This document shows positions 5,400 to 56,918 of a stretch of DNA of 64,000 nt, piece by piece. Source of the stretch: an uncultured Candidatus Saccharibacteria bacterium (lineage in GTDB: Bacteria; Patescibacteriota; Saccharimonadia; Saccharimonadales; CAIOMD01); assembly GCA_964566135.1 (NCBI GenBank), contig CAZMHM010000001.1:197829-261828 (forward strand), in the 5' to 3' direction. The stretch's first letter is position 1. Every line of letters begins with the position of its first letter. Below the pieces are notes generated by a model. The model was not told where the DNA came from. It did no database searches and was given only the letters and a program-made list of their open reading frames with translations. The translations under genes and the position numbers were made by a program.

Positions 5400-6932
5400 A
5401 TGGTGCCATTTCTTGATCCATTAAAGCAAAGCATTTGGCTACGCGTAACGATGCTCGCGCTACTATGTGGAACATTTAGTGTTGGTACTTGGATACTAGG
5501 TAACGAATTTCTACCTATTGAATCAGGTTATATCGCGCTCGCGGTTGGCGGCTTTACACTAGCAATCGCTGTTTTAGTCGGCAAACTAGTGGCCAATTAT
5601 GCAATTACGGCTACTGATTTCTTGGCACGAGCAATATTGCTCGTCACGCATGATGATAATCAGGTCGAAGCACCGAACGATGGTGCGCTTAATTCATCTA
5701 AAGCATTTTTAGTTGGGCTTGCAGAAAGTATCTACAACCTTACATCTAATACAGCAAGTGGCTCGACCGAAAGCCAGCCCGGCGAGCTCCCGTTTTATAA
5801 GACCTTAGCTAACAATGTACCGTTACCAGTTATTGTGCTTGATAAAGAACAGCGAATTACATTCGCTAACGAAATTGCGCTACATTACATTGGCCGGGAT
5901 GTCCCAGAAGTAATCAATCAACCCATCTACGATGCAATGAACTTATCGTTTGTAAGTAGTCAAACCCTTGAGGCCTGGATTGCCGAAAACGCGGAAAGTG
6001 CTGTTATTAACAGTGAGGTTTGGGAGCGCGTACGGCTAACATTGCCCGACGAAACGCGCAAGCAGTTTGATTTAGCAGCACACTACAGTAATAACGATGC
6101 TAATGGAATCGAGACGATTTTGGTGTTATTTGACCGCACCCGACAGTACGAACGCGACGATCACGATCTAACATTTGTTGCACTTGCTGTTCACGAACTC
6201 CGTACGCCACTTACCATTATGCGTGGATATGTAGAGGTATTCGAGGATGAGCTGAGCGATAACTTAAACCCAGAGCAAACAACCTTTATGCATAACATGG
6301 GTGCCAGTGCTCAACAACTAACGTCATTTGTTTCCAACATTCTTAACGTGGCACGCGTTGAAGAAAATGCATTAATGCTAAGGCTCAAAGAAGAAAAATG
6401 GAAAGAAGTGCTGCTTGGTGCCTGCAAGGATATGGAACTGCGTGCGCATGTACACAACAAAAAGCTCGTGTATGATATCGCCGACAATATGCCAACCATT
6501 GCAGTTGATAAGGTAAGTATTTACGAGGTTATAGCGAATCTTATCGATAACGCCATTAAATATACGCACACCGACGAAGAAATTATCGTTAAATCTTACG
6601 AGAAAGATGGCATGATAGAAACCACCGTAACTGATAAGGGTGTTGGAATTGCTCAGGGGCTTATTGCGCATGTGTTTGATAAGTTTTACCGTGCCCACCA
6701 AAGTAAAAATAGTGTTGGTGGCACCGGGCTTGGTTTATATCTCAGTCGGGCGATTATTACTGCGCACGGTGGTACAATTTGGGTACAAAGTAAAGAGGGT
6801 GAGGGTAGCACGTTTGGGTTTACGCTCCCCATATACGCGACGGTTGCAGATCAAATTAATAATGATGATAATGGACAAATAATACGCGGCGCACATGGTT
6901 GGATTAAAAACCATTCGCTGTACAGGGAGTAA
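5400..6932 (+). CDS. membrane sensor histidine kinase (2 TM, PAS-like, HisKA, HATPase_c)
   Basis: H-box HELRTPLTIMRGY, N-box IDNAIKYT, G-boxes DKGVGI and GGTGLGLYLSRAIITAHGGTIWVQSKEGEGSTFGFTLP. Confidence 0.9.
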   Translation: MVPFLDPLKQSIWLRVTMLALLCGTFSVGTWILGNEFLPIESGYIALAVGGFTLAIAVLVGKLVANYAITATDFLARAILLVTHDDNQVEAPNDGALNSSKAFLVGLAESIYNLTSNTASGSTESQPGELPFYKTLANNVPLPVIVLDKEQRITFANEIALHYIGRDVPEVINQPIYDAMNLSFVSSQTLEAWIAENAESAVINSEVWERVRLTLPDETRKQFDLAAHYSNNDANGIETILVLFDRTRQYERDDHDLTFVALAVHELRTPLTIMRGYVEVFEDELSDNLNPEQTTFMHNMGASAQQLTSFVSNILNVARVEENALMLRLKEEKWKEVLLGACKDMELRAHVHNKKLVYDIADNMPTIAVDKVSIYEVIANLIDNAIKYTHTDEEIIVKSYEKDGMIETTVTDKGVGIAQGLIAHVFDKFYRAHQSKNSVGGTGLGLYLSRAIITAHGGTIWVQSKEGEGSTFGFTLPIYATVADQINNDDNGQIIRGAHGWIKNHSLYRE

Positions 6933-6934
6933 CT

Positions 6935-7351
6935 ATGGACGTACAACCAAGCAATGGCCTAAAAGTGTTGTGTATCGAAGATGAGCATTTTATTAGCGAA
7001 CTCTACGCTCGTGCTCTTAGGCGAGCAGGGTACGATGTCACCACAATGCTTAGCGGCGAGGACGGACTTCGCGCTGCAGAAACAAACCAATATGACATTA
7101 TTTTATTGGATTTGATGATTCCGGGCATCACAGGTTTCGAAGTACTGCGAAAATTACGCGAAGACACACCAGATTTGAAAGCAAAGGTAATTATTACGAC
7201 CAACCTCGACCAAGAAGACGATTCTCGTGCAGAAATCGAAACCAAGGCCGATGGATACCTTATTAAAGCTGAGTTTACACCCCGACAACTTGTACAGATT
7301 ATTAACGATATTGCCGCCGGCAAAGAACCAAGTGATAATTACCTAGAGTAA
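6935..7351 (+). CDS. single-domain (CheY-like) response regulator
   Basis: Receiver motifs VLCIEDE, IILLDLMIPGITGFEVLRKLR, and K in ADGYLIK. No output domain. Starts 3 nt after the kinase stop. Confidence 0.9.
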   Translation: MDVQPSNGLKVLCIEDEHFISELYARALRRAGYDVTTMLSGEDGLRAAETNQYDIILLDLMIPGITGFEVLRKLREDTPDLKAKVIITTNLDQEDDSRAEIETKADGYLIKAEFTPRQLVQIINDIAAGKEPSDNYLE

Positions 7352-27806: not shown

Positions 27807-28433
27807 CTAGCGATTATAGTCAGCAAAATGCATTGTCGTATACGTGCAGCCACTGTTTGTATCTTGCACTTCAGAAACACCAAAGTTCGTATAATCGCCA
27901 ACCATAATTGCATAGTGGGTTGGGCTGGCTAATAATGCATCAAATGCCGCCTGTCGAGTATCGTAACAACGCGCCAAATTCTCGCCAACACGATCAGCTT
28001 TGGGTGATAGCCGCCAGATATAGTCCGAGAAACTCATGCCGTTTGGCGCATAATGCGCCCAATAGTTCTGCAGTACCATATCGTTACCCTTTTGCGTCGC
28101 ACTTGTTGATAAGCGAGCATCAATAAGCAATGCTGACAGCCCTTTGCTGGCACGTAGTGTATTTATCGCACCAAGATAATACTGCTCGGCGTCGGTTCGT
28201 GTGATAACGATCGCAGCAGGAGTTCCGGCCGCGCTTGCCACAGGCGAGGATGCAAGCATTGTGAGTGATGGACTTGTAACTGTAACAATAAAAAGCAATG
28301 CCGCCAATATATACCTGCTAGCGAGTACGGTCTGTTCTATACTACGAGCAAACACACCAGCACTATGGCGAAATTGATTACTATTGCTATTCTTATCAAG
28401 TAAAAATGCCTGCGGCATTAGCACATGATTCAT
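27807..28433 (-). CDS. secreted CAP/SCP (PR-1-like) domain protein
   Basis: AAAGGAGG RBS, signal anchor. C-terminal domain with YWAHYAPNG, GENLARC, LASPTHYAIM. Confidence 0.75.
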   Translation of the reverse strand: MNHVLMPQAFLLDKNSNSNQFRHSAGVFARSIEQTVLASRYILAALLFIVTVTSPSLTMLASSPVASAAGTPAAIVITRTDAEQYYLGAINTLRASKGLSALLIDARLSTSATQKGNDMVLQNYWAHYAPNGMSFSDYIWRLSPKADRVGENLARCYDTRQAAFDALLASPTHYAIMVGDYTNFGVSEVQDTNSGCTYTTMHFADYNR

Positions 28434-28476: not shown

Positions 28477-28654
28477 AAAAACCGGCCAACTACTGACCGG
28501 ACAAATACAAACAGATTGCTGTTGCAGGCCCGGTTTCGCTACTAACTCCCCCAAAAGCCAAGCGACCACATACAGCTTTTAGGATCAACGCTTACACTAC
28601 AAGTACACACGTTACTTATAATCCAACAAGGTCCATAAGTGACTCACACTTAGT
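28477..28654 (-). ncRNA. candidate ~180-nt noncoding leader or sRNA ending in an intrinsic terminator
   Basis: Bounded by the promoter at 28661-28689 and the hairpin CCGGTCAGTAGTTGGCCGG + TTTTTT (28501-28477, minus sense). No ORF of 60 aa or more. Several internal hairpins. Confidence 0.45.
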
Positions 28655-28787: not shown

Positions 28788-29123
28788 GTGAAAAAAGCGC
28801 AACAAGGCTTTTCGGTTGTAGAGGTACTCATAATCGTCGTCGTACTTCTTGTTGTTGGGGGCGTTGGGTATTTTGCAGTGTCGAAAATCACTAAATCTAC
28901 AAAGAAAACAGATACGACCACAAGCACACAATCTAAATCTGGCTCTTCGTCTGCTACGCCAGCAGCCGGTACGAGCGCGAGCATTGACTTATTAACAGCA
29001 CAAGACGCAAGTAGTGAAGCAGCGATTGATAGTAAGTATGCTCAGGGCGAACAAACAACAGCAGCAAGCACGAATACTGCAGTATCAAATGTAGGAGGCT
29101 CAATTGATGAAACGTCTCTCTAA
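28788..29123 (+). CDS. type IV pilin/pseudopilin-like protein
   Basis: N-terminal MKKAQQGFSVVEVLIIVVVLLVVGG fits the prepilin cleavage/methylation motif (G|FxxxE plus hydrophobic helix). GTG start. Confidence 0.7.
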   Translation: MKKAQQGFSVVEVLIIVVVLLVVGGVGYFAVSKITKSTKKTDTTTSTQSKSGSSSATPAAGTSASIDLLTAQDASSEAAIDSKYAQGEQTTAASTNTAVSNVGGSIDETSL

Positions 29124-31731: not shown

Positions 31732-33741
31732 TTAAAAGAACAGTTTGCCAATGATTACATAGCGAATAGCAAGGCCAGCAGCAGCAACGATGCCCATAAA
31801 ACCGCCGCCATACACAGCGGGTTTTGACTTAACTTCGTTCACTGCCGCGCGGGGAAAAGGATTCTCAATTGCTATGTCCTGGGTTTTTATAACACCATCT
31901 TCTTCGACGGTAATAGTGTGTTTACCATTTGTTAAATCCGACGCGTTTACGGTATTAGAAGGCTGAATTTTGCCATCAATCTTTACGGTAATTGCATTAC
32001 CTTCTTTTGCTGGAGCAATAACAAGGTTACCGCCCTTAACTGGAATTGGCTCTGCTGTTGGAGTTGATCCAAGTGTAATTGTAGTAGTTGGCGTGCCACC
32101 GCCAGTTGGTACAGTAACAACCGGTTCTGAAGGACCAGGTGTTGGCGACGGGGTGGGACTAGGTGTAGGTGTTGGCGACGGGGTGGGAGCTGGGGTGGGA
32201 GCTGCTGCGGCGAATGTAGTACCGTTTCGTAAAGTCGACACAAAATGGTACTGCAAATCTTGTACAGCAGGTGTATTTGTAACGGTAAACGTAGAGGTTA
32301 CATCCTGAATTTTATGACTATTACGATCCAAGCTCGCATACACGCTTCCATTCGCAAGAGGATATGTTTTGGCGCTGATGCCGGCAGGGGCATTATATGT
32401 GTATACGTTTGAACCAATCTTGACCGTGACATCACCAGCTGCAAGCAAGATACTTAAAATCTCTACAGTATCCCGTGCCGGGCTCGAGCCACCTCTTAGC
32501 GCCATAAGTTTCGTCTGCCCGCCCGTAGGTTTAGCGCTAACAGGTTGTGTACGGTGTGATACATATAGCACATCACGTTTCAGCGCGGGCCAACTACCCG
32601 TTTTAAAGCGCGTAAGATAGTACGATGTTATATCAAGTGGTGCCCAGTTGTTATGAAGAGAAGGCGATACCTGCGCTCCTTCAGAATAGTCATTCCATGT
32701 AGGTATCTGCACCCAGTCTGCTCCGCTTATTGCGGCATTCCATGTAAGGCGCAAGTTTTCGGTATTGTTTGCCTCGTCATAAATACTTTGATTTGGGCGT
32801 TCATCTTGTACGCTCACAGGTTGCATCCAGATCTTTCCTTTTGCATGTGCGTCATTGATGGTTCCTGTTAGGCTGGCGTTTGAGGCAGGGCTACGATTAC
32901 CCCAGTTGCTAAACCCATAGCTAAATGGAGCAAAAGCGGCCGCATTGGCGCCATAATTCAGAAAACATGGCACAAGTGCAACATTCATGCCATATGAGTT
33001 TTTCATAGTATTCACAAAATTCTGCCACCACGCCGCCCCTTGTTTCTCGGGTGCAAATGGCGAAATTACAACTCTGCCATCTGACAGTTTAAATAGCGCC
33101 GAAGAATCTTTGACACTCCCAATTGCTGCTGCTAATGCATTACTATCGCTTGTCGCCGACGCGGTACCGTCTGGCATTAGAATCATCTTAAAGTTAGCGT
33201 CAACTTGAGGTGCCGCCTGAAGCAACAGCTGTACCCGTTGCCAGTGTGTACTCGTACTACCAACACTTAGCAAATCGACCGTAAAACCATCTAAGCCCGC
33301 TTCTGTTGCACGCCTAATTTCTGTCTTCATATCCTCTAATTGATAGTTGCTTGCAATCGGCGACCGGGCAAGAGGCCTATCACGCAATAGTCCTCCATAT
33401 GCCGCGTGCTTACCACTCTCACCGTTAGGGTTTAAGTACCCATTCGTGTAGTAATCTGATGCAGAAGCTTTATTGTCTAGCGAAATAGGATACGAAGTAA
33501 AATAGTGTGCGAAAACTTTTTTGCTTGACCCCTTTAGCGTCGCATTAGCAGGCAAATCAAACGGAAGTGCAGCACTTGCCGCACCTGAGTTAGGTGGTGC
33601 ATTTCGCCACGCTGCATAAAAGGCAAAGCTTGCAACAAAAATAAGTCCTGCAAATAACCACCAGTGTGATTCTAACCACGCTAAACGGCTAGTTTTCTGC
33701 ACTGACCTGGGCGAACTTTTTAGACGATTTTTACGGGCCAT
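31732..33741 (-). CDS. surface-anchored glycoside hydrolase, GH71-like (alpha-1,3-glucanase-like), with PT linker, Ig-like module and C-terminal TM
   Basis: N-terminal TM. VFAHYFTSYPISLDN, GLDGFTVDLLS and IPTWNDYSEG resemble GH71-type glucanases as I recall them. Linker APTPAPTPSPTPTPSPTPSPTPGP. C-terminal TM. Confidence 0.55.
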   Translation of the reverse strand: MARKNRLKSSPRSVQKTSRLAWLESHWWLFAGLIFVASFAFYAAWRNAPPNSGAASAALPFDLPANATLKGSSKKVFAHYFTSYPISLDNKASASDYYTNGYLNPNGESGKHAAYGGLLRDRPLARSPIASNYQLEDMKTEIRRATEAGLDGFTVDLLSVGSTSTHWQRVQLLLQAAPQVDANFKMILMPDGTASATSDSNALAAAIGSVKDSSALFKLSDGRVVISPFAPEKQGAAWWQNFVNTMKNSYGMNVALVPCFLNYGANAAAFAPFSYGFSNWGNRSPASNASLTGTINDAHAKGKIWMQPVSVQDERPNQSIYDEANNTENLRLTWNAAISGADWVQIPTWNDYSEGAQVSPSLHNNWAPLDITSYYLTRFKTGSWPALKRDVLYVSHRTQPVSAKPTGGQTKLMALRGGSSPARDTVEILSILLAAGDVTVKIGSNVYTYNAPAGISAKTYPLANGSVYASLDRNSHKIQDVTSTFTVTNTPAVQDLQYHFVSTLRNGTTFAAAAPTPAPTPSPTPTPSPTPSPTPGPSEPVVTVPTGGGTPTTTITLGSTPTAEPIPVKGGNLVIAPAKEGNAITVKIDGKIQPSNTVNASDLTNGKHTITVEEDGVIKTQDIAIENPFPRAAVNEVKSKPAVYGGGFMGIVAAAGLAIRYVIIGKLFF

Positions 33742-38703: not shown

Positions 38704-40053
38704 ATGAGTAAGAAAGTACCAATCGTTGCAATTGTTGGACGTGCCAATGTAGGCAAGTCTAGTTTGTTCAACGCGATTATTGGCCACCGCGAAGCAATTG
38801 TTGCCAACGAGCCAGGAACTACGCGTGACAGTATTATGGCTAAAGCCAATTATGGCTCACACGACTTTTGGCTAATTGATACCGCAGGTATGAAAGATGC
38901 CGAAGACGAATTTGAATTTACGATTCAAGAGCAAATTATTCAAGCATCCGATAGCGCCGATGTCATTATGGTTGTCGTAGAGGCAAACGTCATGATTACC
39001 GAAGAAGACCGTCGTGTTGCCAAGCTTGCGCTTAAAAGTCGTAAGCCTGTTATGTTAATTGTTAACAAGGTTGATAAAAATACTCGCGTTAACCTCAACG
39101 ATTACCTCCGCCTTGGCATTAAGCCGGTGATTGCCACCAGTACCACACAGCGCACCGGTATCGATGATTTGCTAGCCGAACTTGTGGTTGATTTACCAAA
39201 AGCAACTATCAAAGAAGACGATGGCCGCTTGCGCATAGCAATTTTAGGTCGCCCAAACGTAGGTAAGAGTCAGCTATTTAACACTCTCGCCAAAAAGCAA
39301 CAGGCAATCGTTGCTGATAGGGCAGGTACTACGCGAGATGTTAACCGCACGCTTGTAAAATTTAAGGGCCGTGAAATCGAACTACTCGATACTGCTGGTA
39401 TCCGTAAAAACGGCAAAATCGAAGTTGGCATAGAACGCTTTAGTGTTATCCGTAGTTTATCTGCTATCGAACAAGCCGATATTTGCTTTTTACTTATCGA
39501 TGTCAATGAAGTTGGCGTACAGCTCGACCAAAAGATTGCCGGCATCATCAAAGAAGCAGGTAAGGGTCTTGTACTTGTTGTCAGCAAATGGGACAGCGTT
39601 TTAGATAAAGACGCCTACACCCGTGACGCACTAGCGCCAAAAATTAAGCACGAATTTGAATTTGCACCGTGGGCGCCGCTAGTATTTACGAGTAGCGTCA
39701 CTGGACAGAACGTATCGAAATTATTTGAAATTGCGTTTGAAATAGAAGAAAACCGTACCAAAAAAATTACGACAGGCGAGCTTAACCGCTGGTTGCGCGC
39801 TTGTGTAGACGCACACCCACCCGCAGGGCTCAAAAACAGCTATCCACGGCTTAATTACATTACGCAAACAGATGAAGCAACTCCAACCTTTAAGGTATTT
39901 GGCAGCCACACGAAGCTTCTGCACTGGAGCTATAAGCGATATCTAGACCGACAACTACGCGAGAAGTATGGCTACGAAGGCACGCCGCTCAAGTTCTACT
40001 TCAGCGAAAAGCACGAACACCAGCCCAACGCCCCAAAGCCTCGCGGCCGCTAA
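38704..40053 (+). CDS. der: ribosome-associated GTPase Der/EngA
   Basis: Two G domains (GRANVGKSSLFN ... DTAG ... NKVD; GRPNVGKSQLFN ... DTAG ... SKWD) plus a KH-like C-terminus. Start moved to the second ATG because the first lies inside a TGtTACAAT -10 box. Confidence 0.93.
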   Translation: MSKKVPIVAIVGRANVGKSSLFNAIIGHREAIVANEPGTTRDSIMAKANYGSHDFWLIDTAGMKDAEDEFEFTIQEQIIQASDSADVIMVVVEANVMITEEDRRVAKLALKSRKPVMLIVNKVDKNTRVNLNDYLRLGIKPVIATSTTQRTGIDDLLAELVVDLPKATIKEDDGRLRIAILGRPNVGKSQLFNTLAKKQQAIVADRAGTTRDVNRTLVKFKGREIELLDTAGIRKNGKIEVGIERFSVIRSLSAIEQADICFLLIDVNEVGVQLDQKIAGIIKEAGKGLVLVVSKWDSVLDKDAYTRDALAPKIKHEFEFAPWAPLVFTSSVTGQNVSKLFEIAFEIEENRTKKITTGELNRWLRACVDAHPPAGLKNSYPRLNYITQTDEATPTFKVFGSHTKLLHWSYKRYLDRQLREKYGYEGTPLKFYFSEKHEHQPNAPKPRGR

Positions 40054-40070
40054 AAATAAAGACTACTTAC

Positions 40071-42410
40071 TTAGTACTTTGGCTTTGCGGCAGTATTACC
40101 TGGACCTACACATATGTGTCCATTAACAATTGCCCAGTCCGAGCCTGATGGTCGGCGTGAATCTGTTGCCGAAATGTAGGTATATCCGCTATCACAGTGA
40201 GAATCACCACTTGCAGTACTGGTGCTACTATTTGGCACGCATTGTGGTGCACCGTTCGAAGTATTTGACCAATGATAGCCGCTTTGACAGCTTGAAGGAC
40301 TCGATGGAATGCCAGCTCCTGCGCCAGATGCAGATGAACCACCCGAGCTACTACCGCCGGTACTAGAGCCTGATGATGGATTATTACTCGTAGGGCTGAT
40401 CGTGCAGGTGTATGTCGAAGTATTGAATGTACCATCTTTATTTTCACAATCCGTTCTAGCAATCTGCACAATCTGATTAACGGCAGAAGATTCATTGTAA
40501 TCAAGGACAAGGTTTTCGCCATTCACAATTTGGCTTACATAGCCTGCATGCGATAGCACAATTTTAGTCTGCGCAGTTTTCAAATCACCAGCACGCAACT
40601 TAGCAATGTCGGCCTTAGCCTCACTCTTGCTTAGATACGTATCTGCTTTTGCCTTAGATAGGATGCTCTTAAAGAAGTTGCTAACAGACTTTGCAGTCGA
40701 CTGGAAGAACGACTGGTTGTAGTACACAATCGTACAATCGTAGGTGACTTTCTTGCCGTTCACAACCACCTCGCGTGGCGCACAGCCAGTTACTGTACCA
40801 AAATGATCAGTAGTGTTACGACTTACATCAACGCCATAGCTAAGCTTGTTACGTGGTATAACCGAGTTGTCTTTGCCGCTAACGGTCAAAATCAAGGTGT
40901 TAGCTTGTGCACATGGTACTGCAGTAAATACAGCAGCTTTGCCAGTGCCCTTACGCGAGATACATTGTAAATTTAAGTTGTCGCCATAACCAAGGTCAGC
41001 AACTTTTGGCTTTGGTGCGTCTTTAGGTGGCAAGGGTGGGGGAGTAGTTGCAACAGGAGTAGCGGCACCAGTGCCTTTACCAAGGTCATATGTGACCGCA
41101 CCAAACTTGCTACAAGGTACGTTTGTTTTTCCGTCCTTAGAACGTAGCGAAACAACTAGGAGCAGTTTGCTCTTGTCTTTTTTCGCATAGGTGTTTACGT
41201 CACCGTAAACAAATACGTTATTCTTTGCGCCTACCACCGGCACTTCTTTTGTCTGGACAATCTTAGGCATACCATTATCTATCTTCTCGGTAAGGATAAT
41301 CTCATACTTATTCGCATCAGAAGCAACATCAGTATTATTGATAATCCGCGAACCAAAGCCTTGCTTATTCTCTGGACTTACAGCTTGTGGCAAGTCGGCT
41401 TCACACGTTAATGTAGCGACCTTAGGCACTGGTAACGTGGTAACTTGTGGAGCACTTGACGAGCATGGGTAGGATTTACCAGCGATAACGAGCGTCCAAT
41501 CACCTTGGTCAACACCGGCAGGAGTAACTGGCTTGCGAATCTGACCCAAAACTGTAGCGTTATTGTTGATTGCAACGCCACTGAAGCCAGATATCCATTT
41601 AAAGTAGGTGCTATTGGTACTACCATTCCATGTAAAGGTCGAATTTGGCGCCTTGCCAGTGAAGTTAATATCGGCAAGTGTTTTTGTAGCAGTACCTGTC
41701 TTATTTACAATCGTAACCGGATACCACTCTAAGCCAGCAGTATCTTTTAATACTGTTCCAATGTTACACGAAAACGTGCCCGTAGCCGTCACTGGCGCGG
41801 GCGTAGGGGTAGAAGTTGTTGGCGCTGGCGTAGCAGGAGTCGCTGGGGTTGGCGCTGGCGTAGTTATCGGAGTCGCAGGTGGTGCTGCGGCATCTTTTAC
41901 GAGCTGATTATAGGTAGTTGTAATGTTAGTTGTCGTATTACAGGTATAGGTAACACCCTTTACGATCACTTTCCAGTTTGCCTGGCCAACACCCGCAGGC
42001 GTAGTCGGCTTACGCACTTGACCCTGCACGGTAGCATTATTCAAAATCTTTACACCGCTAAAGCCTTTAAGCCAGTCAATATATTTGCCATCATACGAAA
42101 GCGCATTCCACGTAAAGGTTGTGCCACTCGATGATTTGCCCACAAAAGCAATATCATTAAGTGTGTCCGTTTGTGTACCGGTACGATTTTGGAGCACCAC
42201 AGAGTACCACTGCTGGTTATCGTTCATAACGCCGCCATCAGTGGTTCCAGCAACATCTTTAAATTCGGGACCAATCGTGCACACAAAACCGCCACTTGCG
42301 CGAGAACTATTAACCACATATGCACCAATCGCGGCGACTGCAAATAAAGGAATTAATAAAAAGAGCAGGTGATGAGAGAAACCTTTAGAGTTAAGTTTCA
42401 AAATGCGCAT
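40071..42410 (-). CDS. large secreted protein with two copies of a Cys-bracketed ~110-aa module, PT linkers and a Cys-rich C-terminus
   Basis: Start at MRILKLNSKGF. Signal anchor LLFLLIPLFAVAAIGAYVV. The internal duplication is described in the findings. Confidence 0.7.
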   Translation of the reverse strand: MRILKLNSKGFSHHLLFLLIPLFAVAAIGAYVVNSSRASGGFVCTIGPEFKDVAGTTDGGVMNDNQQWYSVVLQNRTGTQTDTLNDIAFVGKSSSGTTFTWNALSYDGKYIDWLKGFSGVKILNNATVQGQVRKPTTPAGVGQANWKVIVKGVTYTCNTTTNITTTYNQLVKDAAAPPATPITTPAPTPATPATPAPTTSTPTPAPVTATGTFSCNIGTVLKDTAGLEWYPVTIVNKTGTATKTLADINFTGKAPNSTFTWNGSTNSTYFKWISGFSGVAINNNATVLGQIRKPVTPAGVDQGDWTLVIAGKSYPCSSSAPQVTTLPVPKVATLTCEADLPQAVSPENKQGFGSRIINNTDVASDANKYEIILTEKIDNGMPKIVQTKEVPVVGAKNNVFVYGDVNTYAKKDKSKLLLVVSLRSKDGKTNVPCSKFGAVTYDLGKGTGAATPVATTPPPLPPKDAPKPKVADLGYGDNLNLQCISRKGTGKAAVFTAVPCAQANTLILTVSGKDNSVIPRNKLSYGVDVSRNTTDHFGTVTGCAPREVVVNGKKVTYDCTIVYYNQSFFQSTAKSVSNFFKSILSKAKADTYLSKSEAKADIAKLRAGDLKTAQTKIVLSHAGYVSQIVNGENLVLDYNESSAVNQIVQIARTDCENKDGTFNTSTYTCTISPTSNNPSSGSSTGGSSSGGSSASGAGAGIPSSPSSCQSGYHWSNTSNGAPQCVPNSSTSTASGDSHCDSGYTYISATDSRRPSGSDWAIVNGHICVGPGNTAAKPKY

Positions 42411-42522
42411 ATTTTGACTACCTTGTTGTGTTTTAGTTTTTAGAATATCTAATTGCAATTAAATACTACTTATATGCAAAGCACAAGCACTGTGGCGGTA
42501 GTTATCCACAGTGAAATCTCAG

Positions 42523-43137
42523 CTAAACCTCTTCGCTACTACCAAACACTCGGGGTTTAAGCGCAATAATTCGTACTAAAATTGCGAAAAGATACAGACT
42601 AGCCGCAAACAAGACAACCGAAAGCACAATCCATAACCATGATGCCGGATCATCTAGCGTAGTAGCAGATGTAAAAAATAATTTAGTTAAGCTTGGGTTG
42701 ATATTTTTTAAGAAAATAGCCAACCAAATAACAATTCCCACGACACCCGCTAATCGTACAGCTATCTTTGTAATAAAAGCGTTAATCTCGTGCGCACGCC
42801 CTTGCGGGGAACGGTAATAGTGAACCAACTCTACCTCATCACTGGCGCTTTTATAGGCTGCAAAAACATATGAAAACAGCGCAAAGACTACGCTACCAAC
42901 TAATACCCACACCAAGAAATCTGCAACACGAGGGTCAACGCGCGCCTCTAGGTTAGTAAAGAAATTAGATACTTGCGTATCGAGACCGCCTGTCTCAGAT
43001 AAGGCATTGACGCTTGTGCCGTCAAAAAACACCCAAAACCGTTTTATGTTTTGCACAAGTAACAGCAAAAATCCGATACTGACGAATACGACGACTTCAG
43101 CTTTTTCGGGCAAAATCAATTTCAATAATGGTTTCAT
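42523..43137 (-). CDS. 4-TM membrane protein, unknown function
   Basis: Start moved to MKPLLKLILPEK (ATG 43137). Confidence 0.55.
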   Translation of the reverse strand: MKPLLKLILPEKAEVVVFVSIGFLLLLVQNIKRFWVFFDGTSVNALSETGGLDTQVSNFFTNLEARVDPRVADFLVWVLVGSVVFALFSYVFAAYKSASDEVELVHYYRSPQGRAHEINAFITKIAVRLAGVVGIVIWLAIFLKNINPSLTKLFFTSATTLDDPASWLWIVLSVVLFAASLYLFAILVRIIALKPRVFGSSEEV

Positions 43138-43212
43138 ATGTGTGTTTACTCTTATGCCGATACTACTACAGACATCATATATATAGCAAACACTGGTACA
43201 ATATAGTCTGTT

Positions 43213-43866
43213 ATGGCACTTTTCCAACGACAACCAATTCAGTTAAATCAAAATCTACCGTACAGCATATCAATCGCAACCGTCACGGTCCTTATTGTCG
43301 GGCTTGGTAATCCTGGCAAAGAATACAACCTTACTCGGCATAATATTGGCTTTATGGCGCTCGATAATTTTGCGGCTGCTAACGACTTCGGACCATGGCA
43401 AGACGACAAGAAATTTAAGGGCCAAATCGCCGAAAAAACCATGGGTGCCGTGCGCGTCCTGTTATTAAAGCCGTCTACATTTATGAACTTAAGCGGCGAA
43501 TCAGTGCAGGCAGTAGCCCATTTTTACAAGGTAGAGCCTGAACGCATCGTGGTTGTGCACGACGAGCTTAGCATCGCCTTTGGGCAAATTCGTAACCGCG
43601 TAGGCGGACAAGCTGCCGGCAATAATGGTATCAAGTCAATTATCCAACATATGGGCGCAAATTTTGGCCGAGTCCGTATTGGTATAAAAGATGTGTTTTC
43701 TAAGATTCCCGATGCCAGTAAGTTTGTACTTGGCAAATTTAGCGAGGTAGAGCAGAGCTATCTAGAAGATATTTATACCGAGGTAAATAGCGTGCTTACC
43801 GAGTACATTTACGGCGGGGAACTACCAAAGGATACCCGCAGTATCATGTTTGAATACGACGATTAA
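43213..43866 (+). CDS. pth: aminoacyl-tRNA (peptidyl-tRNA) hydrolase
   Basis: LIVGLGNPGKEYNLTRHNIGF, MNLSGESV, VVHDELS, GNNGIKS. Has an unusual ~25-aa N-terminal extension if ATG 43213 is the true start. Confidence 0.9.
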   Translation: MALFQRQPIQLNQNLPYSISIATVTVLIVGLGNPGKEYNLTRHNIGFMALDNFAAANDFGPWQDDKKFKGQIAEKTMGAVRVLLLKPSTFMNLSGESVQAVAHFYKVEPERIVVVHDELSIAFGQIRNRVGGQAAGNNGIKSIIQHMGANFGRVRIGIKDVFSKIPDASKFVLGKFSEVEQSYLEDIYTEVNSVLTEYIYGGELPKDTRSIMFEYDD

Positions 43867-43871
43867 TTACT

Positions 43872-45539
43872 ATGCTACTCAACGTTGATATTAGAGATAA
43901 ACATTTTGGCGATAAGGTGCTGTATAGCGACCTGCAGTTTGCGTTAGATAAAAACGAGAAGGTCGGCGTGATTGGCCGTAACGGTGCAGGTAAAAGCACG
44001 CTGTTTGCAATGCTGGCTGGCGACGATAGCGAATTTGACGGTGAGATCCAAAAAGCGCGCGGCACTATTATCGTCAGCACCCGCCAAGAGCACCACGGCC
44101 TACTCGACACGCCAGCCGTCGACTATATCCTGAGCGAACTACCGAATTATTCGAAACTAAAGCACATTATCGATACCTATCCAGAAACGATGGGGACAAG
44201 TCATCACAAAATGAACATTTACAGTGATGCGCTCGAACAATTCAGTAGCCTAGGCTACTACACGATTGAAGATTCGGTACTGCAACAACTTGCTACGTAT
44301 CAGATTGACGAGGCCAAAGCTCGCTCGCCATTAGGCAATTTAAGCGGGGGCCAGAAACGCTTTGTAGAACTTGTGAAAATTGCCCACGCCAATGCAGATT
44401 TAGCCCTTATTGACGAGCCAACAAACCACATGGACTATGTCGCCAAAGACGCCTTTATTAAATGGCTCGAGGGCGTCAGTGGGCTCACAGTTCTCGTTAT
44501 CACGCACGACCGAGATGTGCTTAAAACAGTGGATAGAATCATCGATATACGCGATGGCCAAGCCTATAGCTATAAAGGGAATTATGATGCTTATTTAAAG
44601 CAAAATAGCACGAGCACCGTTAGTGCTATTCAAAGCTATGGGGTTGCACAGGCAACAATTGCTAATCTTAAAAAGCAGATTTTGTACGCCCAACGTATGA
44701 AGCCAAGCGCGAGCACCGCCGGTGGCAAAAAGAATCCGTTTATCGTGATGGAAGAACGCCTAACGCGCGAGCTTAAAAAATTAGAGGCCGCCAATCCAAA
44801 GCCTAACTTCTGGATTGACCGCGAATCAGTCAATCAAATGCATAGTAAAACTGCCGCCAGCTACGATAAGTACAAGGCCAAGAACATCCGAATTAGCTCG
44901 GTTGATACTGTAAATAAAGGCGCTCAGCTGCCAATTATCGACGTGCATGATTTATCTCTTGGCTACAGCGAGCCATTGTTTAGCGGCGTGTCGTTTCAGC
45001 TGCCCGAGGGTGGCCGAATCCGTTTGCACGGCCGTAACGGTGCCGGTAAAACCACACTTATTAAAAGTATTGTCGCGACCGCAGAGGGCAAAACGAGTGA
45101 TGCTACCTCTTTTGCAGGCTATATAGATGTGCGCGCAAAGCTAACCATTGGTATGTACGAACAAGAAATTGCCGATAAATACTTTGATTTGCCCCTCGAA
45201 CTAGCACTCGAGCGCTTGTATCTAGACCAAGGGTTTTCAATCAGCGACCAACGGATTAGACAACTAATGGGCGATTATTTATTTGACCCAATCGGCGATG
45301 GCCGCATACCGCTTAACACACTGAGCGGTGGCCAAAAGGCGCGATTCCAGATAATTGCCATGCTGTCTAATAATCCGCAATTGCTTATCTTAGATGAACC
45401 AACGAATCACCTAGATTTACCAAGTATCGAAGAACTAGAAAACGCCCTTCATAAATATAAGGGCGCTGTCATCTTTGTAAGCCACGATGGCTATTTTGTA
45501 AACGGCTTTGAACACGAAACCGTCAAAATCGGCGAATAG
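43872..45539 (+). CDS. ABC-F family ATPase (two ABC domains, no TM)
   Basis: GRNGAGKSTLF / LSGGQKRFVEL / LIDEPTNHMD, and GRNGAGKTTLIK / LSGGQKARFQ / LILDEPTNHLD. Confidence 0.9.
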   Translation: MLLNVDIRDKHFGDKVLYSDLQFALDKNEKVGVIGRNGAGKSTLFAMLAGDDSEFDGEIQKARGTIIVSTRQEHHGLLDTPAVDYILSELPNYSKLKHIIDTYPETMGTSHHKMNIYSDALEQFSSLGYYTIEDSVLQQLATYQIDEAKARSPLGNLSGGQKRFVELVKIAHANADLALIDEPTNHMDYVAKDAFIKWLEGVSGLTVLVITHDRDVLKTVDRIIDIRDGQAYSYKGNYDAYLKQNSTSTVSAIQSYGVAQATIANLKKQILYAQRMKPSASTAGGKKNPFIVMEERLTRELKKLEAANPKPNFWIDRESVNQMHSKTAASYDKYKAKNIRISSVDTVNKGAQLPIIDVHDLSLGYSEPLFSGVSFQLPEGGRIRLHGRNGAGKTTLIKSIVATAEGKTSDATSFAGYIDVRAKLTIGMYEQEIADKYFDLPLELALERLYLDQGFSISDQRIRQLMGDYLFDPIGDGRIPLNTLSGGQKARFQIIAMLSNNPQLLILDEPTNHLDLPSIEELENALHKYKGAVIFVSHDGYFVNGFEHETVKIGE

Positions 45540-45605
45540 ATTCGTTGACAAAATTACTACTGATTGCTTATGCTTAAGTCATACGCATAACAAAGGAAAC
45601 AGTCC

Positions 45606-46517
45606 ATGAAAATATCGCTGAAAAAAATTAACCAGATTGGTGTATTAAGCCTGCATGCAGTCATTCCGCTCGTGTTGGTTGTCACCGCTGTTGGCGGTGT
45701 CGGTGCCTATGTAATTACTAAAAGCAAAGCTTACGGTAGTAACGTTTGCTACATTAGCTCAAGTACAGTAACGGTTAATGGCATGACCGGTGATTATTAT
45801 CATGTCATGGTACAAAACCGTACCGATGCAGCGCTACAGCTTGCTAACATGAAGTTTCAAGCAAAAGGTACCAATGGTACTGCTACGATAGGCTACTACG
45901 ATGCAAACGGCAAACCTACTGCAAACTTACTAAAATGGGCATCAGGTTTTAGCGGTACTCAACTTGATAAGTATGGCACCTCTACAGGTTTTGTGCGTAA
46001 GCCCGTAAATCCGAATAACGTTGGTGCAGCAAACTATAAATTTGCGGGTGATGGCAAAACATTTGATGCAAGCTGTCAGGTGATACCAGCAGGCACAAGT
46101 TTTGACTCCAGATACAGTAGTTTAGTTAGTAGCGGCGAAAACAAACAATATGCAATATCATGCGAGATAATTGGTCCAGAAAAAGTAGTTGGCGGCCAAC
46201 CAGCAAACTTTACCGTACGTATAAAAAATGCGGGAACTGTCAATTATGGAGGTTACACTCTCTCGTCTTGGAGCGTTGCAAGCAAGTCAGGCCAAACTAT
46301 TTATGCCATGAGTAGCGCTGATAGTTATAGTGATTATGCAACATTTCCTGAGATAAAGGTTGGTGATACAAAAGATATTACGATTAACTCCGTTGTATCG
46401 CCTAAATTTTCTGGCACCGAACCTCTTATTTACTCATACAACATATTAGCTATGTCAACAAAGGATGTCGGGGCCGTTGCCTACTCCAGCTGCAGCAAAA
46501 ACTGGACACTAAACTAG
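45606..46517 (+). CDS. secreted protein: third copy of the Cys-bracketed module plus a CARDB/Ig-like domain
   Basis: Signal anchor similar to that of 40071..42410. GQPANFTVRIKNAGT is CARDB-like. Confidence 0.65.
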   Translation: MKISLKKINQIGVLSLHAVIPLVLVVTAVGGVGAYVITKSKAYGSNVCYISSSTVTVNGMTGDYYHVMVQNRTDAALQLANMKFQAKGTNGTATIGYYDANGKPTANLLKWASGFSGTQLDKYGTSTGFVRKPVNPNNVGAANYKFAGDGKTFDASCQVIPAGTSFDSRYSSLVSSGENKQYAISCEIIGPEKVVGGQPANFTVRIKNAGTVNYGGYTLSSWSVASKSGQTIYAMSSADSYSDYATFPEIKVGDTKDITINSVVSPKFSGTEPLIYSYNILAMSTKDVGAVAYSSCSKNWTLN

Positions 46518-46526
46518 ATAAGAACT

Positions 46527-51382: not shown

Positions 51383-53011
51383 ATGACTACCGGTGAGTTG
51401 GATTCTGGACACTCAATCGCCCAAAGCTATGCTAATTTGTGGCGTTCAATAGAAGCCGCCCCAACACGTGAAAATGCCGAAATTGTTTCTAATGAAGCTG
51501 TAAGATTACTTGGTGAATTACGTGATGGTATCGAAGACAGCGTTGAAAGATCTCTTGTTTTTAGCGCAGACAAGTTCTATAAAGAATTTGATTGGATAAA
51601 CGGTGCCTTTGATGAGCTTGTAACGTATGAAAGCGACTCTGGAATCACCGATGAGGTATTCGAAGCATTCTTTAGTGGCCGTATAAATGGCTACAAAAAT
51701 GCACAACTAACTTGCCAGGCGATTTTAGATAACTTTGAGTTGGGTTGGTTCAAGGATATGTATACCAAGACTGCAGACCAAGATGTGGACATAAAAGCCA
51801 CGCCAGATTGGATACGAAAACTCACCAAACACGATTACATAGATATATTAGATGCGATATTTACTATGATACAAGAAAAGAGTAATCAACCCATAGAATT
51901 TGGTAGTAGTAAATATGATTCACAAGCGTTTGGTGTTATAGCTACAATAATATCTGCAACTGACTTTGCACTCATTTCCGGTAGCCCAGATGTTATCGTC
52001 CACTTAAAGCAAAAGCTATCTGATTTAAATAAAAGTGTTAAGGATCGTTACCGAACTACCCCAAGTACTATTGCCACGGCAGATATGCTATTTCAAAAAA
52101 TCTTAATCGAAAATAAGCCCATCGACCAATCAAAAGAACTTTTACAATTTATTAAAGAAGAAGACCCCCAGGAGTGGCAGGGTGCCCAAGAAATATTAAC
52201 CTTTTATATGTTATCTTCAATGGCATCAATTGCCATACGTAATTATGAATCGTTAGATTACCCGGGACAGCAACGGGTAAAAAATAATATGCTCTTGCGT
52301 TTTCAGCTTACTTTACTTAAACAAATACCAGATGCACCCTTTATTGTTCAAAATTCTTATGAAGCAGAGCTCGAAACTCCCACATCGGTTAAAGATGTTT
52401 TAAAAGAAACTGAGCTTGACTGGACTGTTTTGCCTAAGGGCGAAGATGAACTACGAAAGTCGGCCGAAGAAATTATAGATGCTGCAATGGCACGGTTAGA
52501 AGACGGCGTTGAACCTACGATTGATTTAGAACGGCTAAATATTTTAACCGAAATACGTAGCCGATGGGGCGAAGATATGTGCTATTTTGCCCGAGGCAAA
52601 TTAAAGCGTGGTGCTAGCATTGCTAGCGAAGATGGTACTCGCCAGCCAGATGAATATATTGTATTGGTGCTTCAAGAATACCGCGATGGCAAATTAATAG
52701 AACATGCTGTTGCCGAAAGCCCAATTGCAGGGCCAAATGCCTTGTATGTATGTCGCGCAGATGTATCACCAAAATCATGGCGCGAAGTCTATTCTATCCC
52801 TAAAAAAGATGCACGTGCGCTAGGTGCCCGCAGGGTAAAACATACCTGTGCAGTAGGCGATTCGCTTATAAGCGTAATGGCAAATAAGGTAGAAACGCTT
52901 CTTACGGCAACACCAACAGAATTTGCTACATTACAGTTTAACGGCAGAAACAAGGGTTTTGGTATTCGTATTATTGACCTAGCTGTTCTGCAATCTGCGC
53001 AGCCTAAATAA
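51383..53011 (+). CDS. 542-aa orphan cytoplasmic protein in a low-GC islet
   Basis: Long uninterrupted ORF. No TM segment and no motif I recognise. Sampled lines are 27-42% GC. Confidence 0.6.
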   Translation: MTTGELDSGHSIAQSYANLWRSIEAAPTRENAEIVSNEAVRLLGELRDGIEDSVERSLVFSADKFYKEFDWINGAFDELVTYESDSGITDEVFEAFFSGRINGYKNAQLTCQAILDNFELGWFKDMYTKTADQDVDIKATPDWIRKLTKHDYIDILDAIFTMIQEKSNQPIEFGSSKYDSQAFGVIATIISATDFALISGSPDVIVHLKQKLSDLNKSVKDRYRTTPSTIATADMLFQKILIENKPIDQSKELLQFIKEEDPQEWQGAQEILTFYMLSSMASIAIRNYESLDYPGQQRVKNNMLLRFQLTLLKQIPDAPFIVQNSYEAELETPTSVKDVLKETELDWTVLPKGEDELRKSAEEIIDAAMARLEDGVEPTIDLERLNILTEIRSRWGEDMCYFARGKLKRGASIASEDGTRQPDEYIVLVLQEYRDGKLIEHAVAESPIAGPNALYVCRADVSPKSWREVYSIPKKDARALGARRVKHTCAVGDSLISVMANKVETLLTATPTEFATLQFNGRNKGFGIRIIDLAVLQSAQPK

Positions 53012-54356: not shown

Positions 54357-56918
54357 ATGGCAACTAATTCTTCTACTCACACGCTTTTACTCCTTGAGAT
54401 TCCTCGTACCAACGACAAGAAAGAACTTGCGGCCGAGCAGATGTTTGCCGCGCTCCACGGCATATTAAAGCCCCGCCGCGAACTATTAGGCGGAGCCCAA
54501 GATCATATTAGTTTTGAAATTGCCGCTATTGGTCAGCGTATTAAGTTTTATGTATGGCTTCCAAAAAACCTTCAGTCTTTTGTCGAAGGACAGATTTACG
54601 CTCAATACCCAACAGCACAGATTTCAGAATTAGAAGAAGATTACGCGCAGCGCCCTATGCCACAACCTGTAATCTACACTACCGAACTCACTCTTACCGA
54701 TCACGAAACAATCCCCATCAAGACATTCCCAAGCTTTGAGGTTGACCCCTTGGCGGCCATTACCGCTACCTTTGCCAAACTAGAGCAACCCAACGAAGAA
54801 ATGTGGATTCAAATGATTGTACGGCCAATTAGCGATGATTGGCACAAACAAAGCTCACGCATGGTGAGTCGCATTACGTCAGGGCGGGGCAGTTGGGGCA
54901 GTGCTGGTATCGCCTCTGGAATAAGCTATGTTGGGCAGGCTTTTGGGGCACTTGTACGGCCTCCGTCAGAAACAACAACTGCCTATGTGCCGTCCGAACG
55001 CGAAAAGACCCGTATAACTGCTATAGAAGAGAAGAGCCGAAAACTTGGATACCAGGTTAAAATTCGTATTGTATACGCAGGTAACGACCAAGCAACTGCG
55101 CGCATGCGTATGCAAGCAATGGTCGGCACCTTTAAGCAGTTTAATACCACCAATCTCAACGGCTTCCAGAGTAAGTTCGCAAGTTTTGAGCCTTCAAAAT
55201 TAGCGCCATACGCCGCACGCACGTTCCTCGACAAGGGGTTTATCTTAAATATCGAAGAAGTCGCTAGCGTATATCACTTACCACACACCAGCGTAGAAAC
55301 ACCAAATATCGTTTGGGCAACCACCAAAACTGCCGAACCACCCGCCACGTTGCCGTCGTTTGGTCAATATCCCGAAAATGAGCTCAGCCTGTATGGCACG
55401 ACCAATTTTAGAGGTAGTAATACAATGTTTGGCTTATTACGCGCTGACCGCGGACGTCATGTGTATATTTTAGGTCAAACTGGTACCGGTAAATCAGGTT
55501 TGCTCGAGCTGCTCACACTTTCTGATATTTATTATGACCAGGGCATGGCCGTTATCGACCCACACGGCGATTACGCCACTAGTATCATGCGCTACATACC
55601 CGAACGTCGCATAAAGGACGTTATTTACTTTAACCCGGCAGATGTCGACTACCCAATTGGCTTTAACCCACTCGAAGTTACCGATTCGGTCAGTAAAGGC
55701 CAGGTGAGTAGTGAGCTTGTAGGCGTGCTCAAGCGCATGTTTGATAGCTGGGGGCCACGGCTCGAATATATCCTTCGATTTACTATTTTAGCCCTGTTGG
55801 ACTACCCAAATGCAACCATGCTTGATATTACCCGCATGCTTACCGAAAAGCGCTTTCGTGATGATGTTATTAGCTATATTGACGATCCGGTCGTTAAAAA
55901 CTTCTGGGTTACCGAATTTGCCAGCTGGAACGAAAAATTTGCATCAGAGGCCGTTGCGCCGGTGCTTAACAAGGTTGGCGCGTTTACCGCTAACCCGATT
56001 ATTCGTAATATCATTGGTCAGCCAAAAAGTACCTTTAGCATTAGACGCGCCATGGATGAGGGCAAGATTATTGTTGTTAACCTCTCCCGTGGCCTTGTCG
56101 GCGAAGATAACGCTGCTATCTTAGGCGCCATGTTTGTAACCAAAATACAATTAGCCGCCATGAGCCGTGCTGATATTCCACGGCTTGAAGACAGGCGCCC
56201 ATTCTATCTATATGTCGACGAATTCCAGAACTTTGCCACTGATAGTTTTGCGGTTATTTTAAGCGAAGCGCGTAAATATGCGCTTAATCTAACGATTGCC
56301 AACCAATACATCTCGCAGATGGAAGAAACGGTTCGTGGCGCCGTTTTTGGCAACGTCGGTACAATGATTACATTCCGCGTAAGCCCAGATGATAGCCCAT
56401 TCTTAAGCAAGTACTATGAGCCGCAGTTTGAGGCAGCAGATCTATCGAACTTCCATAATCGTCACTTTGTGACGAGCATGAGTATTAATGGCGAAAAAGC
56501 AGCCGCGTTCTCTGGTATAACGTTAAATATACCCCAGCCCCAGCACAGTAATATCGATGAAATCATCGCCCATTCGCGCCGCGAATACGCAGCCGACTTA
56601 CATACAGTTGAAGATATGATTAGAGCCGCAACACTGCCCCAGCAGCACGCTGCTGCTGCGCCACAACAGGCTCAACAGCAGCAATCAAGACAATCACACG
56701 ATGGCAAGAGTCATACCATCGTTGCACCATTACCTATTGCTCGCCCATATCCGCCCCAAGAGCAGCCCAAGATAGTCGAAACTGAATCCCAAAAACGTCG
56801 ACGTCGCCGCAAACGTGCAGCACAAGCACAAGAGCAGGCGACACCAAGGGTAGCGCCACCACCGCCACCAGTCCACAACCAACCCGATGATGATTCGGGC
56901 GTCCTAAAGATACGCTAA
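54357..56918 (+). CDS. VirD4/TraD-like (type IV coupling protein family) P-loop ATPase with CPR-type N-terminal domain and Q/R-rich tail
   Basis: Walker A GQTGTGKSGLLE, DPHGDY, Walker B LYVDEFQNF, TIANQY. C-terminal QQQ and RRRRRKR tracts. Confidence 0.75.
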   Translation: MATNSSTHTLLLLEIPRTNDKKELAAEQMFAALHGILKPRRELLGGAQDHISFEIAAIGQRIKFYVWLPKNLQSFVEGQIYAQYPTAQISELEEDYAQRPMPQPVIYTTELTLTDHETIPIKTFPSFEVDPLAAITATFAKLEQPNEEMWIQMIVRPISDDWHKQSSRMVSRITSGRGSWGSAGIASGISYVGQAFGALVRPPSETTTAYVPSEREKTRITAIEEKSRKLGYQVKIRIVYAGNDQATARMRMQAMVGTFKQFNTTNLNGFQSKFASFEPSKLAPYAARTFLDKGFILNIEEVASVYHLPHTSVETPNIVWATTKTAEPPATLPSFGQYPENELSLYGTTNFRGSNTMFGLLRADRGRHVYILGQTGTGKSGLLELLTLSDIYYDQGMAVIDPHGDYATSIMRYIPERRIKDVIYFNPADVDYPIGFNPLEVTDSVSKGQVSSELVGVLKRMFDSWGPRLEYILRFTILALLDYPNATMLDITRMLTEKRFRDDVISYIDDPVVKNFWVTEFASWNEKFASEAVAPVLNKVGAFTANPIIRNIIGQPKSTFSIRRAMDEGKIIVVNLSRGLVGEDNAAILGAMFVTKIQLAAMSRADIPRLEDRRPFYLYVDEFQNFATDSFAVILSEARKYALNLTIANQYISQMEETVRGAVFGNVGTMITFRVSPDDSPFLSKYYEPQFEAADLSNFHNRHFVTSMSINGEKAAAFSGITLNIPQPQHSNIDEIIAHSRREYAADLHTVEDMIRAATLPQQHAAAAPQQAQQQQSRQSHDGKSHTIVAPLPIARPYPPQEQPKIVETESQKRRRRRKRAAQAQEQATPRVAPPPPPVHNQPDDDSGVLKIR

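Follow-up and report, generated by a model that had tools for sequence, protein, structure and literature searches.

A cysteine-bracketed module with a predicted Ig-like fold in two putatively exported proteins of a Saccharimonadales bacterium

Saccharibacteria and other bacteria of the Candidate Phyla Radiation (CPR) attach to host bacteria, and most of their exported proteins are unannotated. Several envelope adhesins are required for the epibiotic growth of cultivated Saccharibacteria (PMC10633639). The subject of this work is a cysteine-bracketed protein module of about 105 residues that occurs three times in a 64,000-nucleotide stretch of DNA from an uncultured Candidatus Saccharibacteria bacterium (contig CAZMHM010000001.1). 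The whole stretch is called the window, and coordinates are those of the window unless another contig is named. Two copies of the module lie in gene A (40071..42410, minus strand) and one lies in the neighboring gene B (45606..46517, plus strand). An earlier note on this DNA had singled out the module and held that it would be of interest if the organism were an epibiont; the organism is a Saccharibacterium, and the cultivated members of that phylum are epibionts. The explanation preferred here, with a probability of roughly 0.55, is that the module is a lineage-restricted, disulfide-stapled, immunoglobulin-like (Ig-like) ectodomain that acts as the leader-proximal unit of exported envelope proteins in a narrow clade of Saccharimonadales.

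Comparable proteins are known within the phylum. In PilX1 and PilX2 of Nanosynbacter lyticus TM7x, a hydrophobic N-terminal helix with a non-canonical signal is joined to bulky beta-rich domains, and the two proteins are proposed to bind host glycans (PMC11623550). Proteins A and B are likewise saccharibacterial and combine an N-terminal hydrophobic helix with beta-rich accessory domains. However, PilX1 and PilX2 are products of pil loci with domains of the jelly-roll or beta-propeller type, whereas A and B are found among housekeeping genes. No sequence similarity to the two pilins was noticed, though the sequences were not compared directly. Essential envelope proteins of Southlakia epibionticum carry VCBS, dockerin, or FN3 domains (PMC10633639). 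These too are exported multidomain proteins of Saccharibacteria with beta-rich binding modules, and they are implicated in the epibiotic lifestyle. Their domains belong to known Pfam families, whereas the module belongs to none, and A and B are known from sequence alone.

Further afield, the CARDB family (PF07705) and the prokaryotic E-set domains share with the module a length of about 100 residues, an all-beta composition and an extracytoplasmic setting (both predicted for the module), and a tandem arrangement in surface proteins. The CARDB-type strand V-x-[VI]-x-N-x-[TG] is matched by WYSVVLQNRTGT of the module. However, no copy of the module matches the CARDB hidden Markov model (HMM) or any Pfam model, and the module has an invariant terminal cysteine pair together with loop motifs of its own, GFSG and GQ(V/I)RKP. 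The ApaG-like protein PA1934 of Pseudomonas aeruginosa (PDB 3sb3, 3nrf), the top neighbor of the modeled module in a Foldseek search, is a small beta-sandwich of similar length that aligns over about 110 columns with a probability of 1.00. The two differ in that the match has an E-value of only 2.7e-3, a TM-score (TMq) of 0.44–0.47, a root-mean-square deviation (rmsd) of about 5 Å, and 14% identity, with no match at the sequence level. We know of no established function for PA1934. Archaellin FlaB and the FlaF/FlaG proteins (PDB 5tfy, 5z1l, 9eq7, 4p94, 5tug) also place an Ig-like sandwich directly after an N-terminal hydrophobic helix; in Foldseek against the PDB they score a TMq of 0.46–0.54, a probability of 0.72–0.98, and an E-value of 0.03–0.5 against the module. 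Unlike the archaellins, which are archaeal motility proteins, A and B have a leader with no class III score, and no continuous packing of helix onto sheet is seen in the model.

The module, its copies, and its family

Copy 1 (module 1 of A; 41940..42281, minus strand) spans residues 44–157 between Cys44 and Cys157, 114 residues in all, and copy 2 (module 2 of A; 41463..41768, minus strand) spans residues 215–316 between Cys215 and Cys316, 102 residues. The two are 49% identical over 114 columns (pairwise BLASTP, E=2.8e-35). Copy 3, in B (45747..46076, plus strand; residues 48–157, Cys48 to Cys157, 110 residues), is 36% identical to copy 1 (E=2e-13) and 33% identical to copy 2 (E=2.8e-15). Translation of these three segments gives exactly the strings quoted in the earlier note, and the significance of their alignment held: a seven-copy profile built without the copy of B still recovers it at 53 bits and E=4.3e-9, with E-values scaled to a library of 1.84 billion proteins. 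A profile of module-1-type copies alone matches module 2 at 1e-26 and B at 1.4e-6. Because copies left out of a profile are recovered by it, the copies are homologous, and their likeness is not a matter of chance or composition. No fourth copy was found in the window by a three-copy HMM run against its 688 six-frame open reading frames (ORFs). Domain 3 of A and the second domain of B were considered as degenerate extra copies and rejected, as hhalign detected no homology between the module and domain 3 (probability 0.3%) or between domain 3 and the second domain of B; the latter is likewise without detectable kinship to the module.

The first and last cysteines of the module, Cys1 and Cys114, are invariant in all eight aligned copies. 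Other conserved features are a WY-x-V strand, an invariant N-x-[ST], W-x-x-GFSG, and GQ(V/I)RKP-x-x-P-x-GV, with conserved aromatic residues in WY, FTW, and W-x-x-GFSG. Protein A has 16 cysteines that form eight consecutive pairs and protein B has four that form two, each pair bracketing one predicted domain. Given this pairing around every domain and the invariance of Cys1 and Cys114, the latter two probably form a disulfide between the first and last strands, which would bring both chain ends to one pole of the module. A separate observation concerns the N-x-[ST] sequon (module columns N32-x-T/S34), which is kept in 8/8 copies. Protein A as a whole has 18 sequons where 10.6 are expected from composition (Poisson P=0.024). 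These could reflect either a structural asparagine turn or a hint of N-glycosylation.

Structure prediction followed by Foldseek, a check proposed in the earlier note, gave a confident all-beta model with only weak Ig-like neighbors. The AlphaFold2 (AF2) model of the module, built from a six-sequence alignment, has a predicted local distance difference test score (pLDDT) of 85.4 and a predicted TM-score (pTM) of 0.79. Its eight beta strands occupy module residues 2–8, 24–31, 44–49, 55–59, 68–72, 84–90, 103–107, and 110–113, and the sole part of low confidence is an indel-rich loop at residues 14–18. A full-length model of A, from a four-sequence alignment, is poor (pLDDT 49.7) and was used for secondary structure and domain boundaries only, with no fold search; it repeats the strand pattern in both copies. 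Foldseek found no PDB match at E<=1e-3 and nothing significant in the BFVD library of viral folds. In the AF2 model the module has the layout of Ig-like and E-set domains, with about 100 residues, seven to nine beta strands, and no long helices, and the proteins that its profile matches weakly in sequence (HYR, FN3, and Calx-beta repeat proteins) are likewise beta-sandwiches. Superposition on classified members is weak, with a best E-value of 2.7e-3 and a TMq of 0.44–0.54 for ApaG-like, archaellin, and FlaF domains of the PDB. CBM3 entries and chitinase accessory domains also appear in the Foldseek list; membership in CBM3 was rejected, as a TMq of 0.25–0.35 and an rmsd of 11–14 Å amount to no true superposition. 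As modeled, the module is an Ig-like beta-sandwich with no close structural relative in the libraries searched.

Curated domain families do not take the module in. None in Pfam-A 2025 or NCBIfam 20.0 reached its cutoff; the best sub-cutoff Pfam scores were those of Runt (E=0.0098, 15.9 bits against a cutoff of 27), SusE (0.017), and CttA_N (0.062), and NCBIfam gave no match better than E=0.03. Among 177,635 distinct PDB sequences, an eight-copy profile had no match at E<=10. The module is unrecognised in all three collections, as had been claimed for it. When 1.84 billion cluster representatives, which stand for about 15 billion proteins, were searched exhaustively with HMMER, four real clusters emerged. 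P0001 is a fragment from a strain nearly identical to that of the window and holds the second copy and part of the first. P0002, with two copies, is the orthologue of A on a contig of “Candidatus Saccharimonadales bacterium isolate STL-PAT14”, the sole match among 185,579 species-representative genomes. P0003, a singleton cluster with one copy, is B itself, and P0004 is a protein of 359 residues with one module (E=1e-25). A word-index search with the full-length query added P0009, a further orthologue of A with two copies. With A included, the whole family comprises about six proteins and nine copies. Two copies are present in each protein of the A type whose N-terminus is complete (A, P0002, P0009) and one in P0004 and in B, and the order of leader followed by module is common to all.

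The description of the module as lineage-specific agrees with these results, all four clusters having a Saccharimonadales-like architecture. Weaker matches, P0005–P0008 (E 2e-6 to 3e-4), were rejected as members; they come from long proteins with HYR, FN3, or Calx-beta repeats, aligned over many short stretches, and are read as echoes of fold class or composition. The word-index search returned nothing for copy 1 alone or for the eight-copy alignment, though relatives exist, the index being insensitive to short queries. Scans of metagenome contigs with the module alignment and with protein B gave no relatives, and an exact look-up of B on contigs found nothing on record. As a sequence family the module is new, but its domain type is a familiar one, the Ig-like module of surface proteins.

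Architecture and conservation of genes A and B

Gene A encodes a predicted exported multidomain protein of 779 residues. From the N-terminus it consists of the leader, module 1, a short helix, a Pro/Thr linker, module 2, domain 3, a linker, the C-core, a Gly/Ser linker, and a Cys-rich tail. The ORF list extends the gene to a TTG at 42458 (795 residues); the ATG at 42410 is most likely the start because the N-termini of the orthologues agree with it and a weak AAGG lies upstream. The leader (42282..42410, minus strand, as are all parts of A) covers residues 1–43. Module 1 is followed by a conserved segment with the pattern N/G-TTTNI-xxx-Y-xx-L and then by the Pro/Thr/Ala-rich linker (together 41769..41939, residues 158–214), with a predicted helix at residues 163–174 and predicted disorder at 176–209. 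Domain 3 (41112..41405, Cys336 to Cys433) is predicted to be all-beta and is fast-evolving. The C-core (40395..41006, residues 469–672) is a beta region with two cysteine pairs and three helices; it has no Pfam or NCBIfam match and is covered by a block of DNA homology between the window and STL-PAT14 at 40399–41007. The Gly/Ser linker and Cys-rich C-terminal tail (40074..40394) are hypervariable. Both P0002 and P0009 contain about 55 extra residues (…SWKAWSDGVTANKALTGQAL.DKLKPLK.AYDA…) between module 2 and domain 3 that are absent from A of the window. The extra segment lies at about 6900–7080 of the STL-PAT14 contig (L001) and is also present on the contig of P0009 (L002).

Gene B encodes 303 residues and has AGGAA 7 nucleotides upstream of its ATG. 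Its leader (45606..45746, plus strand, residues 1–47) is homologous to those of A, P0009, and a 202-residue protein of STL-PAT14. Copy 3 of the module follows, and then a second Cys-bracketed beta domain (46161..46493, plus strand, Cys186 to Cys296) whose resemblance to CARDB is below threshold (PF07705, E=0.31, 11.7 bits, cutoff 22.7). Gene B is seen in this genome only. Its slot in STL-PAT14 (L001 2038–2646, minus strand) holds the 202-residue protein, which is Cys-rich, has the homologous leader, lacks the module, and has an unrelated ectodomain; across 45520–46523 there is no DNA homology to STL-PAT14. The leader at this slot is kept and the cargo exchanged. In a tree of eight copies, the module-1 types group together, as do the module-2 copies of A and P0009, and this grouping makes the tandem duplication in A older than the split of the sampled species. 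Module 2 of STL-PAT14 and the copy of B sit on long branches. A recent duplication as the origin of the module in B was rejected, as its copy is the most divergent, being 24–36% identical to all others, and has the longest branch.

Conservation differs sharply along A. Synonymous sites have reached saturation in the comparison of the window with STL-PAT14 (pS, the synonymous difference, is about 0.7), and only the non-synonymous divergence (dN) is informative. For reference, the essential housekeeping GTPase Der is 87% identical in amino acids with a dN of 0.087, ABC-F is 80% identical with a dN of 0.171, and DprA is 66% identical with a dN of 0.301. The corresponding values within A are 92% and 0.079 for module 1, 87% and 0.085 for the C-core, 47% and 0.511 for module 2, 34% and 0.797 for domain 3, and 30% and 1.134 for the C-terminal tail. 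The GQ(V/I)RKP motif is lost from module 2 of STL-PAT14. The earlier note had suggested looking for positive selection or copy-number variation between strains; fast evolution does not apply to module 1, which matches Der, whereas module 2 is variable.

A strain contig from the European Nucleotide Archive (L005, strain of ERZ15185475) is 98% identical across gene A, and its module 1 differs by no amino-acid substitution. Synonymous differences between the window and this strain cluster 3' of codon 446, at about eight times the density found 5' of it (25 of 199 sites, against 5 of 322; Fisher P=2e-7). In L005 the final 55 or so codons of A, which encode the Cys-rich tail, are replaced, with no DNA homology for 40053–40236. 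The clustering of synonymous differences and the tail without homology (40074–41072 compared with L005) indicate intragenic recombination and replacement of the tail.

The leader and the competing explanations

The leader of A begins MRILKLNSKG-FSHH..., continues with about 22 hydrophobic residues that include a central proline and IGAYV, and ends in NSSRA/SGG. Its Kyte–Doolittle maximum is 2.64 over residues 15–33, and the model has a helix at residues 13–33 and a low-confidence stretch at 34–41. This is the only hydrophobic segment in A, and B likewise has a single, N-terminal one; an alignment of A with B that runs from the hydrophobic segment through the module has E=7.8e-17. Six leaders were aligned, those of A, B, P0002, P0004, P0009, and the 202-residue protein of STL-PAT14. 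They share a basic start, a glycine, a conserved histidine, a mid-helix proline (except in P0004), GAY, and then S-x-A, the last in 6/6 leaders (S-R-A/S in A, S-K-A/Y in B, and S-H-A, S-G-A, and S-H-A in relatives). In every family member, the module starts 5–8 residues past S-x-A. By inspection, the leaders fit the signal peptidase I pattern of a basic n-region, an h-region, and small residues at −3 and −1. The leader is most likely a Sec-type signal peptide or signal anchor, and the long h-region of 22 residues makes an uncleaved anchor possible as well. That both proteins have a similar leader, which the earlier note called a signal anchor, is confirmed by these alignments, and its term “secreted” suits what can be read from the proteins: the leader, the Pro/Thr linkers, the even and paired cysteine count, and the lack of any other hydrophobic segment.

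The same leader might instead be a degenerate prepilin-type (class III) signal cut after the conserved glycine, so that A and B, on an archaellin-like or modular-pilin plan, would join or prime a type IV pilus as tip adhesins. We regard this as unlikely. All six leaders do have a glycine at the boundary of the basic and hydrophobic parts, followed by F/M/V and, 21–23 residues later, by a tyrosine, and P0004 (KKG-FGHVELIV) has a glutamate at +5; yet +5 is leucine in A and histidine in B, and the leaders of A, B, P0004, P0009, and the 202-residue protein give no N_methyl (PF07963) or TIGR02532-type match even at E<=10. The only other match in the window to an HMM of the six leaders is the ORF 28788–29123 (E=6e-4 among 688 ORFs), which passes the Pfam N_methyl gathering threshold (21.8 against 21.2 bits), although hydrophobic segments easily match each other in small searches. 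Archaellins and FlaF/FlaG are among the top Foldseek neighbors (probability 0.94–0.98), but in A the helix of about 22 residues gives way to a polar Ser/Gly stretch that contains a canonical S-x-A and is modeled with low confidence, and no amphipathic second half of the helix packs on the sheet in what is a poor full-length model. PilX1 and PilX2 of N. lyticus TM7x, large lectin-like minor pilins, also lack a predicted PilD signal (PMC11623550); the genes considered here, however, lie among der, pth, ABC-F, and dprA, outside any pil locus. Slightly less probable still is a bolder form of the idea, in which leader and module would be the bacterial counterpart of the archaellin plan and A and B a new class of large pilus-associated tip adhesins encoded outside pil loci, module 1 docking into the pilus and the variable distal domains contacting the host.

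What the module would do after export is a second matter. Adhesin or glycan binding, as the earlier note proposed, is plausible. That the module itself binds host cell-wall glycans in the manner of a CBM or lectin and so sets the host is improbable, to the same degree as the bolder pilus scheme. Such a role would suit an exported beta-sandwich with many conserved aromatics, the fast evolution of module 2 and of the copy in B, and the essential glycan-binding surface proteins of cultivated Saccharibacteria. The CBM3 members and chitinase accessory domains in the Foldseek list would point the same way, as would the sub-threshold Pfam matches to CttA_N and SusE, but the CBM3 alignments are not real and the Pfam matches are far under threshold. 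The conservation of module 1, like that of Der between species and with no non-synonymous change between strains, argues against a fast-evolving role in host specificity for module 1, and the module is always leader-proximal, furthest from the host if the protein is anchored. Least probable of the alternatives is that the modules are inert spacers, rigid protease-resistant beads that bind nothing themselves and serve to carry the functional C-terminal parts out through the wall. Tandem modules joined by Pro/Thr linkers, a generic Ig-like fold, and the same disulfide bracket on every domain, suggestive of a general stabilizing design, are what a spacer might look like. However, spacers tolerate substitution, and the dN of module 1 is far below that of module 2; the loop motifs GFSG, GQ[VI]RKPxxPxGV, and N-x-T/S are kept across paralogues of 24–58% identity; and termini at one pole, if the disulfide forms, would suit a side-mounted knob better than an in-line spacer.

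In the preferred explanation, that of a disulfide-stapled envelope ectodomain, A and B would owe their export to the hydrophobic leader that they have in common; this is most likely a Sec signal peptide or anchor, in which S-x-A would be a signal-peptidase-I-type site. The eight-strand module would be pinned from first strand to last by the Cys1–Cys114 disulfide. Because purifying selection on module 1 and on the C-core is as strong as that on Der, module 1 would dock to a partner that does not vary, be it part of the bacterium's envelope or a conserved ligand. The variable parts (module 2, domain 3, and the Cys-rich tail) would face outward and could tune specificity. What the analysis shows is that the copies are homologous, that the family is rare, that the predicted fold is all-beta, how the cysteines are arranged, and that conservation forms a mosaic; export, the disulfide, and any binding role are inferred. 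Several points weigh against this explanation. Export and cleavage are judged by inspection of the leader sequence, the structural matches are all weaker than E=1e-3 with a TM-score of at most 0.54, the fold class is generic, and the AF2 alignment held six sequences only. No ligand-binding signature was found. The orthologue of A in L005 has a stop inside module 1, where codon 74 changes from CAA to TAA (Q74, at about 42189–42191) and splits the gene calls into products of 73 and 685 residues; it may be a sequencing error at 0.84x coverage or mark a real pseudogene. Finally, an uncleaved leader would put module 1 at the membrane under the wall, a position that fits docking or a scaffold better than host adhesion.

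Genomic setting and significance

The window and STL-PAT14 have the gene order der, A, small membrane protein, pth, ABC-F, small exported protein, and dprA in common, with 70–77% DNA identity at the locus. P0009, of 902 residues and 43% identical to A (BLASTP), is also encoded between pth and der, and the synteny of der, A, and pth is kept in three genomes. Along with housekeeping genes, the window has a two-component system, a protein of glycoside hydrolase family 71 (GH71), and a VirD4-like ATPase, and topA is among the neighbors. Searches of phage and plasmid collections (tblastn) gave no match and so no sign of a mobile origin. Given the conserved synteny and the housekeeping neighbors, genes A and B are chromosomal and vertically inherited within a small Saccharimonadales clade.

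Other genes of the window were observed alongside. Gene A adjoins a gene for a multi-pass membrane protein (42523–43233, minus strand) that has no Pfam match at E<=0.001, is 52% identical in STL-PAT14, and is not found at that position on the contig of P0009. A 542-residue ORF at 51383–53011 (plus strand) also has no Pfam match at E<=0.001. The GH71 protein (31732–33741, minus strand, 669 residues, domain E=3.7e-32) may be an enzyme that degrades wall or glucan, in an epibiont whose genome is reduced. The VirD4/TraG-like ATPase (54357–56918, plus strand, 853 residues) is of the type IV secretion coupling kind, with DUF87, TrwB_AAD_bind, and T4SS-DNA_transf matches. A match to the c-di-GMP-II-GAG riboswitch (28520–28604, minus strand; 40.4 bits against an Rfam gathering score of 40) lies directly upstream of 27807–28433 (minus strand), which encodes an exported protein with a CAP/SCP domain (PF00188, E=1.8e-12); this may be a case of a secreted saccharibacterial protein under the control of a cyclic dinucleotide. 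Divergent from this riboswitch gene, the ORF 28788–29123 (plus strand) encodes 111 residues that begin MKKAQQG/FSVVEVLIIVVV..., with a prepilin-type N-terminal motif and a Ser/Thr-rich tail; it stands alone, outside a pil cluster.

The reach of the finding is limited to about six proteins worldwide, of an ordinary fold class and with no link to a mechanism beyond predicted export. Within that reach, the module adds an orphan domain whose boundaries are clear, whose fold is predicted with confidence, and whose conservation mosaic is informative. Residues 44–175 of A offer a compact construct for structural and binding work. The mosaic itself hints at which parts of these proteins face a constant partner and which face a variable one.

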